A stretch of 64,000 nt of DNA from a bacterium (GCA_043811375.1 JBDRNJ010000044.1:4575-68574), one strand, 5' to 3'. Shown: positions 6,103 through 63,868, numbered from the stretch's first letter. The notes: generated from the sequence alone by a model not told the origin. Numbers and translations are program-made.

Positions 6103-6258
6103 GTCTATCGACAGCAACGGAGTTCTTACCGGGACAACGGCCAGCTGAACAAGACTATCATCAAATAACCAGTGGTCGTCTTGCTTTATGAGCGGTCAGG
6201 AATCCTTTCCTGATCGCACCACGTGTAGCCGTCAGCTTATCGATCCCTTATGGGCCGA

Positions 6259-11581: not shown

Positions 11582-11712
11582 GGGCTTGTTGATAAACATA
11601 ACAAACGTCATAGCGAGGAGCGAAGCGACGTGGCTATCTCGTTGACATTCAATATCCGAGATTGCCACGCTGTCGCTCGCAATGACGAGAACAGGACTTT
11701 TTCAACAAGCCC
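11582..11712. repeat. about 130-bp nested imperfect palindrome (repeat module D)
   Basis: Outer arms GGGCTTGTTGA (11582-11592) / TCAACAAGCCC (11702-11712). Inner arms CGTCATAGCGAG...GTGGCTATCTCG / CGAGATTGCCAC...CTCGCAATGACG. The left inner arm recurs at 34661-34680. Confidence 0.8.
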
Positions 11713-18806: not shown

Positions 18807-18813
18807 CTGGGGT

Positions 18814-18955
18814 CCTGTAGGTCGGCGTTCCGAGTGAGTCCGGCATCAGACGGACGAATGAGAAACCCGACATTTCCCTGGTGGGATGGGATCTTGTCAG
18901 GCTATTGTCGGGTTTCACGGTCGCCAGGGGCTCCCTGGGAACACCGACCTACAGG
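18814..18955. repeat. about 140-bp nested hairpin element (repeat module F)
   Basis: Outer arms CCTGTAGGTCGGCGTTCC (18814-18831) / GGAACACCGACCTACAGG (18938-18955), 17 of 18 complementary. Inner arms GAGAAACCCGACA (18860-18872) / TGTCGGGTTTCAC (18906-18918). Starts 8 nt after the PBP1A stop. A half copy lies at about 34960-35005. Confidence 0.8.
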
Positions 18956-18971
18956 AACTGTCGGGCCGGGT

Positions 18972-19147
18972 GAGGCTGTCCCAAAAGGTAATTATTCTAA
19001 CGCGCGTAGAGCGGGGGCTTGTCTCCCGCCAATAAAAGTGGCGATGCCACCGGCGGAAATAAAGCCCGCCGCTACGCGGGTTTACCGAGTGACGATTTAT
19101 TAGATGTAACGTTAAGTGTACCCAAAGCTGACTTGTGGGACAGCCTC
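18972..19147. mobile_element. 176-bp MITE-like element, copy A1
   Basis: Perfect 12-bp terminal inverted repeats GAGGCTGTCCCA...TGGGACAGCCTC. 167 of 176 nt identical to 34730-34905. No coding capacity. Confidence 0.75.
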
Positions 19148-19232
19148 GAGTCACCCGACAGCACACCACCGTCGGTGGTGGCGGTAAGTCGGTTGCAACA
19201 TTAGAAACTCTGAGGGTTATACAAATACAAAG

Positions 19233-26135: not shown

Positions 26136-26303
26136 GTTTCGTCAGGTCTTGACACCGACGAAGTCGGGGGTGTGACCTGACGACCATCCCACAAGTCTGG
26201 GTTTTCCCAAAGGAAATAAATAAATGTGGCGATGTCACCTGTCGGGTCACACCTCGCCAGGAGGCGATCCAAGACCCAACCGAACATACAGATTGCAACA
26301 CGG
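26136..26303. repeat. intergenic repeat family B, copy B1
   Basis: Shares blocks GTGTGA(C/T)CTGACGACCATCCCACAAGTC(T/C)GGGTTT, ATAAATGTGGCGATG(T/C)CACC(T/G)GTCGGGTCACA and CCCAACCGAACA with 44681-44954. Confidence 0.75.
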
Positions 26304-26373
26304 CCTCTCCGCTCAGAGTGACGGCTTTCACAGATCATTATACTAACGATGATGTAGTAACATTATTTGTGAG

Positions 26374-32436: not shown

Positions 32437-34518
32437 TCACTGATTACGCTTACCATTAAGATGTTGTTTCAACTGCGGGTGGTCTTTCTGCATTCCCATA
32501 ACATATCCCGGGTCCAGACCCTTCTTGACGGCGTACTCGTAAGCCCGGGCGGCATGGTAATAGGCCTGTCGTTCAAGGTAAGCGTCCCCGGCCTGTCGGA
32601 AGTAGTCATAGGCTACTGCCGAACCGGTAAATATTCGCGTGACATACTCCAGAGAGCGGTCAAACTCGCCCCGCCGGACACAAATGGAGGCCAGTCCGGC
32701 CAGGGCATTGTGTTCGTTACTGTCGATTACCAGCGTCTTAAGAAACAGTATTTCGGCGCGCTCGTCCTGTTGCAGGCGCATGTAGATCGTGGCCAGGTTG
32801 TTCATAGTGGAAGCGTTATACGGATTGAGGCCGTCGGCGATTCTTGTCATTACCAGAGCGCTGTCAAGATTCCCCTGCTTCAGATAGCAGACTCCCAGGT
32901 TGGTGTGAGCATCGTACGACAGGGGATTATGAGCGAGTGTCTGTTGGAAATATGCCATTGCTTCAGTGTACCTGCCTTGACTGACCAACCGGCGACCCTG
33001 GCGACTAAGCCGGACTTCCGGAAAATCAGCCTCGATACGATCTTCTTCTTTTCGAGCGGCTGCGTGGTTGCCTTGTTGCTCGTGGTAGTTGACCAGCAGT
33101 CGGCGGGCATTGCGATTCCGAATCATATCCATAATGAGATAATCCTCGAAATGAGCCAGCCCGATTCGGTCAACCGTCTGTGCGGCAACACGGGGACCGA
33201 GCACCAGCAGTCCCAACGCAATCGCCGGCACCACGACCGAAAGCGCTACTCGCGAATCGCGATTGCTGGTCAGAGCATAATGATAATAGAAAACTGCCAG
33301 CGGCACTCCGACGACAGAGAAGAGGTCCCAGTTGCGGGGCATACCGATTCCGGGATTGAGAACGAACACTGCTCCCATAGTCGACAATGACAACACCAGC
33401 AGAAAGCGGTGCTCCGGTCGGGCAAACCACTCCCTGGCGGGTGTGAGGACCAGCGCCGTCACCAGTACCGGTAGTCCCGGGAGCAGGATAAGACACAGGT
33501 TGGCGATATCAACCAGGTGTTTCCCCGAGAAGAGCCAGTCGCTTTCGATGGTGAAGCGATCCGGGAACGGTGGCAGCAGGGCAAATGTGAAAAAGAAATA
33601 GTGCGTGTACAGGTAGTAATACACGCCCGCCGACAGCATCAGCAACCCGGCAGCAAGCAGAACCCTGATCCTGACGTTTCGACCAAACAACCACTTGGCA
33701 GGGCGGGAATCTCTGAACAAAAGGTAGATCAGACCGGGCAGCAACGTTACCGCAAACAGATGGAAGAAAAGTGCTGGTAGTACCGGCACCACTGCCCACC
33801 AGCGTGACAACCTGCCTTTGACAATAGCCACCCCGATCAGAGTGAACTGCATCACCGCCACGAGAAACAGGGCATAATTTTCAACATAACCAAAGAACAG
33901 CAGCATATACCCACTCGATGCCAAACCCAGCAGGAAAAGGAATCGCTGAAGGTAACCATCGAAGAGACGGTACGACCAATATGCCACTCCCATCAGCATC
34001 AGAACACCTGACACTATCGAAATAATCTGAAAGGTCAGCAACGCATCAGCCTCTCCATCACTTCCTAACAGGTAATACAGTGTTTGGTTGACAAATGAAG
34101 TTCCCATGTCCCAGACCTTTACCGAGGGTGCGCCTTCGGCCAGACGGGCCAGTAACTGGTAGCCGTCGCCGAGAAAATGCGTCGTGGCGCGAAAAATCAC
34201 GAACATGAGCAGGAAGACAGCAACAGTAATAACAGCCGGCAGCAGGAAGCGCTGTGACGAATCACTTCCGGCGCGCTTGCGTTTGTCATGTCTGGTTGGT
34301 TGCTTTAACAGTCGGGACAGTAGCGGGGGGAGGATCAGCCCCAGCACCAACAAGCCATACTTGGCTGCAACCGGCAGATAGGCCCACCAGTTGAGTCCCC
34401 AGATTCTAACTTCCGGGAAAAATGAAGCAAAAAGCAGCAGACCAAGCATGAGATAATAGACGGCAAACAAGTACTGTTGACGATGTTTGTCGGCAGAGTA
34501 TGTGTTACGTACGTTCAC
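32437..34518 (-). CDS. polytopic membrane protein (GT-C-like N-terminal region) with C-terminal TPR repeats
   Basis: 693 aa. About 11 predicted TM helices over the first roughly 440 aa, then TPR repeats. The architecture resembles TPR-fused GT-C glycosyltransferases. No catalytic motif verified. Confidence 0.55.
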   Translation of the reverse strand: MNVRNTYSADKHRQQYLFAVYYLMLGLLLFASFFPEVRIWGLNWWAYLPVAAKYGLLVLGLILPPLLSRLLKQPTRHDKRKRAGSDSSQRFLLPAVITVAVFLLMFVIFRATTHFLGDGYQLLARLAEGAPSVKVWDMGTSFVNQTLYYLLGSDGEADALLTFQIISIVSGVLMLMGVAYWSYRLFDGYLQRFLFLLGLASSGYMLLFFGYVENYALFLVAVMQFTLIGVAIVKGRLSRWWAVVPVLPALFFHLFAVTLLPGLIYLLFRDSRPAKWLFGRNVRIRVLLAAGLLMLSAGVYYYLYTHYFFFTFALLPPFPDRFTIESDWLFSGKHLVDIANLCLILLPGLPVLVTALVLTPAREWFARPEHRFLLVLSLSTMGAVFVLNPGIGMPRNWDLFSVVGVPLAVFYYHYALTSNRDSRVALSVVVPAIALGLLVLGPRVAAQTVDRIGLAHFEDYLIMDMIRNRNARRLLVNYHEQQGNHAAARKEEDRIEADFPEVRLSRQGRRLVSQGRYTEAMAYFQQTLAHNPLSYDAHTNLGVCYLKQGNLDSALVMTRIADGLNPYNASTMNNLATIYMRLQQDERAEILFLKTLVIDSNEHNALAGLASICVRRGEFDRSLEYVTRIFTGSAVAYDYFRQAGDAYLERQAYYHAARAYEYAVKKGLDPGYVMGMQKDHPQLKQHLNGKRNQ

Positions 34519-34660
34519 GGCGATTCAATGTGCCTTCATCCGGGTCGTGTTAGTCACAACTTGTATTTCCATCTTGCCGGGCAGCTTTTCCCGAGACCTG
34601 CCGACTGCTGCTTGATATTATGAGAAAGACTACCGGGTAGCAAGACTAAAACCCGACGAT

Positions 34661-34729
34661 GCGACGTGGCTATCTCATTGAGTGCGCGGCGTATGTCCAC
34701 ATGCGCCGCGTTCTGTCGGCAGATGTGGA
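34661..34729. repeat. repeat module C, copy C1 (left part, interrupted by element A2)
   Basis: GCGACGTGGCTATCTCATTGA (same as the module D left arm), then GTGCGCGGCGTATGTCCACATGCGCCGCGTTCTGTCGGCAGATGTG. The right remainder TGGACATCT follows at 34906-34914. Homologous to 63661-63739. Confidence 0.8.
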
Positions 34730-34905
34730 GAGGTTGTTCCAAAAGGTAATTATTCTAACGCGCGTAGAGCGGGGGCTTGTCTCCCGCCAATAAAAGTGGC
34801 GATGCTACCGGCGGACATAAAGCCCGCCGCTACGCGGGTTTACCGGGTGACGATTTATTAGATGCAACATTAAATGCACCCAAAGCTGACTTGTGGGACA
34901 GCCTC
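34730..34905. mobile_element. 176-bp MITE-like element, copy A2 (inserted into repeat C1)
   Basis: 167 of 176 nt identical to A1. TIRs GAGGTTGTTCCA...TGGGACAGCCTC. Flanked by TG/TG. Removing it restores the 10-bp hairpin arms ATGTCCACAT/ATGTGGACAT seen intact in C2. Confidence 0.8.
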
Positions 34906-35010
34906 TGGACATCTACCGGCCACAGAGAAGCATACCGCTCTATTCTGTAGACAGATGCAGGTCGGGTTCCGGCGGCAAACCGCACTTATGAGAAACCCGA
35001 CACATTCAGC

Positions 35011-35060
35011 TTTTATGTAGTTGCGGCAGGTCTTGCTCGCTGGGCGAGTGTGACCTGTCG
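35011..35060. repeat. partial copy of repeat family B (5' part)
   Basis: TTTATGT..CAGGTCTTG....GTGTGACCTG.CG aligns with 26131-26180. Confidence 0.5.
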
Positions 35061-35076
35061 CATGAGTAAAGAATAC

Positions 35077-35908
35077 CTACTTAAGCAGCATCATCTTTTT
35101 GGCGGTGCGGAAGTACTTCGTCTCGATTCGGTAGAAGTAGACGCCGGTCGGGGAGGGGTTGCCCTCAGCATCGGTGCCGTCCCACGAAGTGGCGTGATCA
35201 CCGGCAGATTGGGTCTCGTCGACAAGCGTAGTTACATGCCGACCGAGCAGATCATAAACGACCACCCGAACGTGTGTCCGGGCACCCAGAGTATACTCGA
35301 TCTCAGTGGTTGGGTTAAACGGGTTGGGGGTAGTTAGCGCTCAGCTCATAAGATTCCGGTGCAATCCGGTCACCGTCAGCGGCATCGGCAGGTGAACCGG
35401 GATGGTACTGCAAGTCAAAAACCGAACGGTACAGAATGAATTCCTTTTCCGGATTGGACAAAGTTATTTCGAGATTGCCGTTTTCGAGAGGAGACCCTAC
35501 GACGTCCATGTAGTCATTACCATCCGGATCCAGCACAAAGTGGCGCTTGACCACGTTCTCCAGATTGATGGTGTCAACCGTCAACTCGATATCATCGTGG
35601 GAGTAGCTGCGCAGATATAGTTTCAGCCGGGCTGTTCTCACTGAACCGTCAGGCAGCAGCGGCGGGTAGATATCCAGCACCGAATGGGAGTACGTAATAT
35701 CGTGGGTGGGGACTCCGAACCCGGGATTACCTTCGAGTGTCTCCTGCCACAACACCGAACCGCCATCAGAAACGTCGATAGTGATCCGATAGGTGGCGAC
35801 ATCGGTTATCGCCTCCTGGAAAAACACCTCGGCCGACGCCGACATAGCACCGGCGGCTATCAGAACCGGCAACATCAGGACCAACAAATAGAGCTTTGAT
35901 CGGGACAC
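35077..35908 (-). pseudogene. secreted protein with T9SS type-A C-terminal sorting domain, disrupted by a +1 frameshift
   Basis: ORFs 35315-35908 and 35077-35265 are two pieces of one gene. The upstream piece ends ...LSANYPQPV*. Removing one C from the C5 run (G5 at 35326-35330 on the plus strand) gives the canonical NYPNPFNPTTEIEYTL...VYDLLGRHV...GVYFYRI...KKMMLLK. The 832-nt span is 3n+1. Confidence 0.8.
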
Positions 35909-44680: not shown

Positions 44681-44954
44681 CTGTGTCATTATAAAGTTTC
44701 CTCAGGTCTGCAACCGACGAAATCAGTAGTGAGCGACTAAGTCGGGAGTGTGATCTGACGACCATCCCACAAGTCCGGGTTTCTTGCGCCGTCACGAATC
44801 CTTTCGTAACGGCTACATTTTGTGCGCTCAGGAGAGGATTCCTGGCCGCACGTAAAATATGGCAATGCCGATAAATGTGGCGATGCCACCGGTCGGGTCA
44901 CAACTCGCACCGAGGTGAGCCAGATCCCAACCGAACAAACGGATTGTGACACAG
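44681..44954. repeat. intergenic repeat family B, copy B2 (expanded)
   Basis: Same conserved blocks as B1, plus an 18-nt and a roughly 85-nt internal insertion. Ends are inverted: CTGTGTCA (44681-44688) / TGACACAG (44946-44953). Confidence 0.75.
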
Positions 44955-45054
44955 TCTGCAAATTGGGGGCAAAATATTTTTGTAATTGCGACAGGGGTAG
45001 TGCGTCTGTAGATTGGAAATGCTTGGTCAGCGGTTGATCAGGAAGTGCTTTACT

Positions 45055-59374: not shown

Positions 59375-59698
59375 ATGCGGTGATTTTTCTCGTGGGTCGG
59401 TTCGGTACCGTCAACTACCGGCAAGCGGATTGGTGATAGGGCTGTCCCATAAGCAGGTTCGAGTAATCAATATTGGTGGGATACGAACCGCTATTTACGT
59501 TTACTATAATCATAACCATTTAAGACAACCTTGCAGATGACTTGATAAAAAAAGAGGGCGCTCCTCTGGTTGGGTAGAGGGGGCTAGGAAACTACCCAGG
59601 GACAGCAGAGAGTCACCCTCGACAAAGGTAATTTGTACTATGTTTGTCTATATGTCAAGTCTTTTTTCTTGGGGTTTCCCCGGAACTTGGAAATCGGC

Positions 59699-62292: not shown

Positions 62293-62424
62293 ATGGGTGA
62301 AGGATGCAAGGACGCTCTCAGGCTCAATTTTGATCGCAAATTGAAGCTCGAATTTCATCGAACTAAAGTTACCAGTGATGCCGGTTTGCTGGCCTACCGA
62401 GAGCTTGATGAAGTCTTGGGGTAG
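62293..62424 (+). pseudogene. N-terminal fragment of an IS1380-family transposase
   Basis: [43 protein letters not shown] resembles the conserved N-terminus of IS1380-type DDE transposases. Weak continuation in another frame to about 62500 ([20 protein letters not shown]), then homology ends. No DDE domain is present. Confidence 0.6.
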
Positions 62425-63660: not shown

Positions 63661-63739
63661 AGCGAAGCTAATCGTGGCTGTTATATGGGTGTGCGGCGTA
63701 TGTCCACATGCACCGTGATTTGCCGGCAAATGTGGACAT
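63661..63739. repeat. repeat module C, copy C2 (intact hairpin)
   Basis: GTGTGCGGCGTATGTCCACATGCACCGTGATTTGCCGGCAAATGTGGACAT. Perfect 10-bp arms ATGTCCACAT (63700-63709) / ATGTGGACAT (63730-63739). Confidence 0.8.
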
Positions 63740-63868
63740 CTGCCTATCACAGGGATGGAACATAGAGATCACCACGCCCGCCTTCTGAGAGGACGAGGTG
63801 ATGAGGTTGAGTTATTTAGTAACGATGATTTGCCGCTCTGAGGTTTCCACACCCAAAAGTTATCTCTA

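Follow-up and report, generated by a model that had tools for sequence, protein, structure and literature searches.

How did one short repeat come to lie within the hairpin of another, and what kind of element does this? The 64-kb stretch of DNA analysed here (the window) holds two copies of a 176-bp element bounded by TIRs (A1 and A2) and two copies of an intergenic repeat (C1 and C2). The initial annotation had placed A2 inside C1, and direct reading together with repeat finding bears this out (Table 1). The explanation that we favor, at a probability of roughly 0.8, is that A is a non-autonomous deletion derivative of an IS1182-family insertion sequence (IS) that inserts at the dyads of palindromes by a 4-bp stagger, in an uncultured host related to the Zixibacteria. 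The anatomy of the element, the duplication, the paralogous empty sites, the homology of the ends of A to those of ISs and the palindrome-centred position of the targets are matters of direct observation.

Table 1. Features of the nested locus, its relatives in the window, and perfect duplications flanking elements with A-type termini. Positions without a contig name are counted from the first letter of the window.
Feature	Position	Strand	Description	Basis
A2	34730-34905	+	176-bp MITE	direct reading, repeat finding, TIR check, alignment
A2 left TIR	34730-34741		GAGGTTGTTCCA; 10/12 match, 2 mismatches (both transitions)	
A2 right TIR	34894-34905		TGGGACAGCCTC; 12/12	
A1	18972-19147	+	second 176-bp MITE copy; 12/12 TIRs	
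Four-helix core of A2	34761-34836	+	CGCGTAG / GCGGGGG-CTTGT-CTCCCGC / GTGGC-GAT-GCCAC / CGGCGG..CCGCCG / CTACGCG	
Four-helix core of A1	19003-19078			
C1 left part	34655-34729	+	left 75 nt of the ~100-nt intergenic repeat C: H1 plus left arm and loop of H2	aligns to C2 63662-63736 and L121:1553-1627
H1	34685-34710	+	uninterrupted local palindrome CGCGGCGTATG-TCCA-CATGCGCCGCG	DNA fold of reconstituted C1, direct reading
H2 left arm	34712-34725	+	..GGCAGATG	8/10 flanking positions complementary across the duplication
TSD copy 1	34726-34729	+	TGGA, the 4-nt loop of H2	
TSD copy 2	34906-34909	+	TGGA	
H2 right arm	34910-34926		CATCTACC...	
C1 right part	34910-34930	+	H2 right arm plus CACAGAG tail	aligns to C2 63737-63757 and L121:1808-1828
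C2	63662-63762	+	repeat C copy without insert	direct reading, repeat finding, alignment, fold
Empty H2 in C2	63725-63744		GGCAAATG-TGGA-CATCTGCC	
Perfect 4-bp duplication, A2			TGGA	
Perfect 4-bp duplication, L121 copy			TGGA	
Perfect 4-bp duplication, L024			AGGG	
Perfect 4-bp duplication, L025			GAGA	
Perfect 4-bp duplication, L045			TGAA	
Perfect 4-bp duplication, L118			TCAA	
Perfect 4-bp duplication	L124:3083-3301		AGGG	

The two copies of A within the 64-kb window are 94.9% identical by alignment, and the 12-bp TIR, GAGGCTGTCCCA, is perfect in A1. The only open reading frames in A, on either strand, are overlapping, spurious ones of at most 62 amino acids, and none is a transposase ORF. 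Short, lacking an ORF, bounded by TIRs and a TSD, present at multiple unrelated loci and carrying ends homologous to those of ISs, A has the attributes of a MITE. That A is mobile and MITE-like had been proposed at the outset and is now well founded: A and C occur separately, the junction carries a duplication, and the termini match those of autonomous IS1182-family elements. Membership of the IS200/IS605-derived palindrome-associated elements, which have subterminal hairpins but neither TIRs nor target duplications, was ruled out by the TIRs and the 4-bp duplication.

Together, the window and the metagenome contigs contain two copies of A in the former, five in contigs of project SDBU01 and one, diverged, in L068. 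(Contigs and loci other than the window are designated by L numbers.) A pattern made from the core of A, run against metagenomes in a single scan, returned four contigs, all belonging to SDBU01. L121 has a full-length copy at 89% identity, and four more variant or truncated copies are spread across L121-L124. Copies of A type that stand without C are A1, L121:10740-10945 and those in L123 and L124, while the copies in L122 and L068 are truncated or decayed. A1 and A2 are 95% identical and the L121 copy 89%, and therefore A has moved within this lineage; mutations in the TIRs of both A2 and the L121 copy suggest that the copies are now decaying. A further candidate at 59438-59612 comprises two putative decayed TIRs at a distance of 175 bp. 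Its left end (AGGGCTGTCCCATAAG) agrees with the IS consensus at 15/16 positions; it was not accepted as a third copy, given its poor right end (CCCAGGGACAGCAG), the lack of a duplication and the lack of internal similarity to A.

Repeat C was described as intact in C2, with arms ATGTCCACAT (63700-63709) and ATGTGGACAT (63730-63739), and direct reading agrees. Removal of A2 together with one TGGA leaves GGCAGATGTGGACATCTACC, the counterpart of GGCAAATGTGGACATCTGCC in C2, and the two are collinear on both sides of the junction, which in the window reads ...GGCAGATGTGGA/GAGGTT...CAGCCTC/TGGACATCT (slashes mark the ends of the element). To the right of the junction the match between C1 and C2 continues for ~22 nt (TGGACATCTaCCggcCACAGaG versus TGGACATCTgCCtatCACAGgG), and the 66-nt cores of the two copies are ~82% identical. 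C2 can indeed be read as an empty site, in the form of a paralogous, unoccupied copy. The duplication, by contrast, is not the 2-bp TG first suggested: the left junction (34720-34729) reads CAGATGTGGA and not ...CAGATGTG, and the duplicated unit is the 4-bp TGGA.

The claim that excision restores a hairpin needs amending. Collinearity with C2 is restored, but folding as DNA shows that the structure hit is better described as the local palindrome H2. Reconstituted C1, folded as single-stranded DNA, forms the adjacent hairpins H1 and H2 (-20.6 kcal/mol), and the C unit of L121 adopts the same two-hairpin fold (-22.8 kcal/mol); the long-range pairing of ATGTCCACAT with ATGTGGACAT is the minimum-energy fold only in C2, which is the more degraded copy. 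Such pairing is possible owing to the relatedness of H1 and H2, two palindromes inverted relative to each other and built on a common 10-nt core, ATGTGGACAT. The insertion point of A2 coincides with the 4-nt loop of H2, and it is this loop that is duplicated.

All copies of C are intergenic (the 64 kb contain two, and a few H2 units occur on other contigs), and, as short imperfect extragenic palindromes arranged in an inverted doublet (H1, H2), they display a trait of REP sequences. The left edge of C (34657-34681; 63664-63690) begins with CGATGCGACGTGGCTATCTC and is akin to an inverted-repeat element at 11607-11690, GTCATAGCGAGGAGCGAAGCGACGTGGCTATCTC...GAGATTGCCACGCTGTCGCTCGCAATGACG. In Ignavibacteria (L006) and Dysgonomonas (L018, L106) there are TIR-bounded elements filled with units of a similar kind ('GTCATTGCGAGCGAAGCGAAGCAATCTC').

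Might the likeness between the halves of C1 and C2 reflect coincidence, recombination or an assembly error instead of transposition? C is present just twice in the window, the sequence comes from a metagenome-assembled genome and a neighboring gene contains a frameshift (35266-35320). Yet the same junction recurs in an independently assembled metagenome, the two copies are collinear on either side of it, and neither a duplication nor family-wide insertion at palindrome centres is a product of misassembly. The initial annotation had itself reckoned with a coincidental resemblance between C1 and C2; the same C::A junction in an unrelated contig (L121:1553-1833), together with unoccupied palindromes elsewhere, contradicts it. 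We regard explanations of this type as barely credible.

Unoccupied H2 units are found in the window (63725-63744), at L121:1512-1531 (a perfect palindrome), at L068:3647-3666 and twice in L047, where a compensatory change (GACG...CGTC in place of GATG...CATC) preserves the palindrome. All empty sites for A2 (C2; L121:1512; L047, two; L068:3647) are paralogous. The TPR protein encoded beside A2 has many Zixibacteria homologues at 40-45% identity; the gene of its nearest relative (58% protein identity) has PrpD directly upstream and so provides no orthologous empty site.

Where C and A occur together, they could be travelling together. According to this alternative, the left part of C, A and the right part of C make up a ~274-bp composite that propagates as a unit, perhaps from one ancestral insertion, and the 'empty' palindromes are separate relatives or the outcome of precise loss. 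Positions 34655-34928 of the window align end to end with L121:1553-1826 at 86.5%, with the junction TGGA/.../TGGACATCTGCC reproduced, and the two contigs bearing the composite have no detectable genes in common, the loci being non-syntenic. In addition, the C core and A have diverged equally between the window and L121 (~89% each), whereas C1 and C2 are just ~82% identical, which fits a shared composite ancestor. Against this, A is found without C, and C or H2 without A; the junction carries a direct 4-bp duplication; other MITEs with the same TIRs lie in like palindromes (L025, L047, L058); and A1 and A2 are closer to each other (95%) than either is to the L121 copy (89%). Spread as a unit would, moreover, only make the insertion event older, not remove it. 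Given the presence of other MITEs in the same kind of palindrome, repeated independent hits on the loop are to be expected. We therefore hold propagation of the composite to be possible but doubtful: judging from the alignments, a C::A composite may stem from one old insertion and have spread as a unit, and repeated hits on the same loop would fit the target rule equally well.

This target rule emerges from comparison of the elements with A-type termini. Perfect 4-bp duplications flank A2 and a number of these elements (Table 1); by chance a perfect 4-bp match has a probability of 1/256 per element. A1 had been noted as flanked by GT and GA, with no clean duplication. Read as 4-bp units, GGGT (18968-18971) and GAGT (19148-19151), the flanks are largely rescued as a duplication, although the match remains imperfect at 3/4. 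A1 also occupies the centre of a palindrome, CTGTCGGG (18958-18965) ... CCCGACAG (19154-19161), of which no unoccupied version (TGTCGGG..CCCGACA) was present among the sequences examined. One way to quantify the symmetry is to count complementary positions about the dyad in the flanks outside the 4-bp duplication. Over 12 elements, not all of them independent (A2 and the L121 copy may share one event), 80 of 120 positions are complementary, compared to 30.1 ± 4.9 for random positions drawn from the same sequences (maximum 49 in 2000 samplings). A1 and A2 each contribute 8/10.

Autonomous ISs occupy sites of the same nature. In L128 and L132 the arrangement is GTCAGGAA-TCCT/IS/TCCT-TTCCTGAC, and in L138 and L139 it is GGGTCGAC-CGACG/IS/GACG-TGTCGACCC; the IS of L136 has GGGA on both sides (GGGA/IS/GGGACGTACGCCGCGCACAAAGAG) and lies in an H2-type site with a tail like that of C1 and L025. 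Sister MITEs in L025, L047 and L058, which have the same TIRs and unrelated interiors, are likewise located in this type of palindrome. Landing in hairpins is a rule for this transposon lineage and not an accident of A2. Several metagenomic IS copies (L133-L135, L137, L140, L143, L144) have non-matching flanks, which could arise from chimeric short contigs, from recombination between copies, or from duplication-free insertion of the sort described for IS1272. The window contains, at 6195-6214, an unoccupied palindrome, GTCAGGAA-TCCT-TTCCTGAT, that equals the site occupied in L128 and L132 (GTCAGGAATCCT/IS/TCCTTTCCTGAC); a related palindrome at 44811-44832, GTCACGAA-TCCT-TTCGTAAC, shows a compensating G→C / C→G change.

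Candidate relatives of an autonomous partner, which the initial annotation proposed to look for, are 1.5-kb IS1182-family ISs in Zixibacteria-like metagenome contigs; the 64-kb window contains no transposase with A-type termini. A Zixibacteria MAG (L085) carries a 1525-bp IS with A-type termini; its transposase, of 480 aa, scores 359.5 bits on NF033551, the NCBIfam model of the IS1182 family (cut-off 270), and contains the Pfam domains DUF772, DDE_Tnp_1 and DDE_Tnp_1_6. A protein search with this transposase led to relatives of 63-70% identity, which carry PF05598, PF01609 and PF13751 and reside in ISs of 1495-1539 bp with TIRs of the form GAGG(C/T)TGTCCCATAAG... The ISs in L128-L135 have right ends that agree with the last 27 nt of A1 (150-176) at 89-93%, and the last 19 nt of A1 (158-176) match L136 at 19/19. 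By the homology of its ends to IS1182-type ISs, A is best classified, as far as sequence comparison goes, as a MITE of an IS1182-type insertion sequence. Small elements that have the TIR of A and unrelated interiors are also present in Zixibacteria-like MAGs.

A scan of genome contigs with the TIR 16-mer was too unspecific for general use and helped just with the Zixibacteria-like loci and an IS of the Opitutales. Most matches are hairpins resembling intrinsic terminators (GAGGCTGTCCCAAAAGGGACAGCCTC with a T-run after it) from Bacillota and Bacteroidota. Terminator-like hairpins of the form AAAA-GAGGCTGTCCCAAAAGGGACAGCCTC-TTTT, in which the 12-mer makes up the stem (L014, L054, L063, L088, L101, L110 and many others), are effectively two abutting TIRs; they may be minimal relics of IS1182-type elements reduced to their TIRs, or the likeness may be coincidental. 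The Opitutales IS was rejected as cognate to A: its 15-bp terminus is identical, but its transposase is ISNCY/IS5-like and its duplications span 6-7 bp, with TA at the end. The length of a duplication is thus not set by the terminus alone.

The interior of A has no counterpart in the IS interiors with which it was compared, and its conserved core is not IS-derived. The core is a junction of four local helices (Table 1). In an alignment of eight sequences 93% of cells are paired, four pairs are altered on both sides, and there are compensatory changes and strand-consistent G·U pairs; all shuffles had a lower covariation score than the real alignment, in a sample that is small (8) and partly chosen by the search pattern. 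A single long hairpin, the minimum-free-energy fold, was set aside, as it fits the C:G→T:A and G:C→A:T double changes worse than the four local helices do. Rfam gave no match at the gathering threshold over the whole window and none at E<=5 over 34500-35350, and ARAGORN found no tRNA or tmRNA.

Another way to view the core is as a pair of units in inverted orientation, in each of which a GC-rich hairpin comes after GTAG (GTAG-A-GCGGGGGCTTGTCTCCCGC, with GTAG-CGGCGGGCTTTATTTCCGCCG on the opposite strand); the two can pair as one long hairpin and look like a REPIN doublet. These units raise the question of whether A is a REPIN-type element moved by a REP-associated tyrosine (HUH) transposase and not by a DDE enzyme, and the closest relative does have a gene for a transposase of that class on its contig (L125:3010-3609; NF047646, 95 bits, cut-off 80). 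HUH/Y1 transposition, though, gives neither TIRs nor target duplications, both of which A possesses; the termini of A are homologous to the ends of IS1182-type ISs, and the window contains no tyrosine transposase (RAYT) gene in its 64 kb. The GTAG-hairpin units belong to the core of A, and C is without GTAG. We consider mobilization by an HUH enzyme very improbable; the furthest one could go is to regard the core as a REPIN-like passenger of the MITE.

The course of events under the preferred reading, that A is an IS1182-type MITE, can be sketched as follows. A transposase, most probably of IS1182 type and supplied in trans, would bind the GAGGCTGTCCCA(A/C)AAG termini and direct integration to the dyad centre of short palindromic (REP-like) intergenic repeats; recognition of the target would be by structure or by symmetry. 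Strand transfers staggered by 4 bp would then duplicate the central 4 nt, that is, the hairpin loop. Insertion of A2 into the TGGA loop of H2 in C1 (GGCAGATG-TGGA-CATCTACC) would have split that palindrome, and the long-range arm as well, with C2 as the paralogue of C1 that stayed unoccupied; A1 would have entered the centre of a different palindrome. A broader scheme, in which nested repeats are built by two systems (IS1182-type, 'safe-harbour' targeting of dyads with duplication of the loop, and a MITE core acting as RNA or as a REPIN captured from RAYT activity, combined with propagation of C::A units between genomes), strikes us as unlikely.

The surroundings of the nested locus offer several further observations. 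Across A2 from the TPR gene lies a gene that ends in a type-IX-secretion C-terminal domain, and in three contigs a gene with this domain at its end is situated just upstream of an IS1182-type element or the C::A composite (L121:7-1353, L085:1936-2169 and window 35077-35908). The adjacency may be due to chance, if such genes are numerous, or the palindromes may be a mark of the 3' ends of such genes. In the window this gene, which lies downstream of A2 on the minus strand, appears to be frameshifted within 35266-35320: the ORF at 35315-35908 ends ...NYPQPV*, and the type-IX-secretion domain is read on in a different frame as far as 35077 (FNPTTEIEYTL...VYDLLGR...GVYFYRIETKYF...LLK). A single surplus base in CCGGTTTAAC would explain the shift, whether as a pseudogene or as an assembly error.

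Other repeats are also present. A second family (D3 + D2) at 26156-26306 and 44734-44957 has TIR-like ends, the left end GACCATCCCACAAGTC and the right ends GATTGCAACACGGCCTC and GATTGTGACACAGTCTG, with which CTGACTTGTGACACAGCCTC at L125:3781-3800 may be compared; it is probably a decayed sister MITE. Its copy at 44734-44957 has ~73 nt of extra sequence between the halves (within 44783-44870), another nested insertion, and the family shares with the core of A the motif ATAAA(A/T)GTGGCGATG(C/T)CACC. Directly upstream of A1, a 144-bp imperfect palindrome (18813-18956; 65% self-complementary) holds GAAACCCGACA...TGTCGGGTTTC modules that recur at 34960-35000 and at the Zixibacteria locus L024. In L125 (SDBT01000968.1), from the closest relative of the window organism, the tyrosine transposase gene is flanked by palindromic modules of the types seen between the genes of the window (GTCGGGTCACAC..., CCCACCC..GGGTGGG). 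Finally, a 780-bp non-coding stretch includes a 43-aa ORF (62293-62424) with a weak match to the N-terminus of the IS1380 family (E=0.09). By this similarity it may be a transposase remnant; with only a weak IS1380 N-terminal match and no relation to A, it was dismissed as the transposase of A.

The significance of the nested A2/C1 insertion is largely descriptive, and no general principle is changed by it. It documents an IS1182-derived MITE family, with its autonomous relatives and its palindrome target rule, in uncultured Zixibacteria-like sediment bacteria, the mobile DNA of which is essentially undescribed. It also supplies natural examples of an IS1182-type element that keeps the stem-loop and duplicates only the loop, which complement the replacement reported for IS1272 and may aid the understanding of target choice. 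For annotators, it accounts for the mosaic of nested palindromes that makes up intergenic regions in these genomes, and for the frequent ending of contigs at such repeats.

Among known systems, bacterial MITEs such as Correia/NEMIS and Nezha are small and non-coding, have TIRs that match those of ISs, duplicate their target, occur in multiple intergenic copies and fold strongly. A resembles them in being small and non-coding and in its TIRs, duplication, intergenic copies and strong fold. It differs in that its interior is an unrelated, conserved four-helix core and not simply a deleted IS, that its sister MITEs share termini only, and that insertion is strictly at palindrome centres. A second comparison is with ISs that target REP sequences and come from other families, IS110 and IS3 among them. 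Like these, A uses dispersed extragenic palindromes as landing sites, with nested repeats as the result; unlike these, which are autonomous and found in Proteobacteria, the present case involves an IS1182-type MITE and new families of palindromes. ISs for which REP sequences are targets include ISPpu9, ISPpu10, ISPa11, ISPsy8, ISRm19, ISRm22 and IS1397 (Tobes & Pareja 2006, PMC1525189).

The palindromes themselves invite comparison with the REP/BIME/REPIN sequences and their RAYTs (PMC3116915, PMC3333891, PMC2817692). Repeat C, too, is an inverted doublet of related imperfect extragenic palindromes, compensatory changes keep H2 palindromic across genomes, and the nearest relative has a RAYT gene. 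C nevertheless differs in having no GTAG motif and no RAYT gene in the window, and we call it no more than 'REP-like'.

The closest parallel is IS1272, an IS1182-family element of staphylococci, which targets inverted-repeat or stem-loop structures of varied sequence (PMC5678879); palindrome targeting by some IS1182 members is attributed to Siguier et al. as cited in the same work. The autonomous relatives of A share with this family a transposase with DUF772, DDE_Tnp_1 and DDE_Tnp_1_6, TIRs and stem-loop targets. A itself is without a transposase, and its hosts are uncultured Zixibacteria-like bacteria, not Firmicutes. IS1272 is reported to replace the target stem-loop, with no duplication, but the model proposed for it includes a path ('pathway c') in which joining at the loop duplicates the loop only (PMC5678879). 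In the case of A the palindrome is kept and the central 4 nt are duplicated, the outcome of 'pathway c'. A is thus a further IS1182-type case of a preference already published for IS1272, and, since stem-loop targeting by the IS1182 family is known, the nested insertion of A2 in C1 is explained by known behavior.
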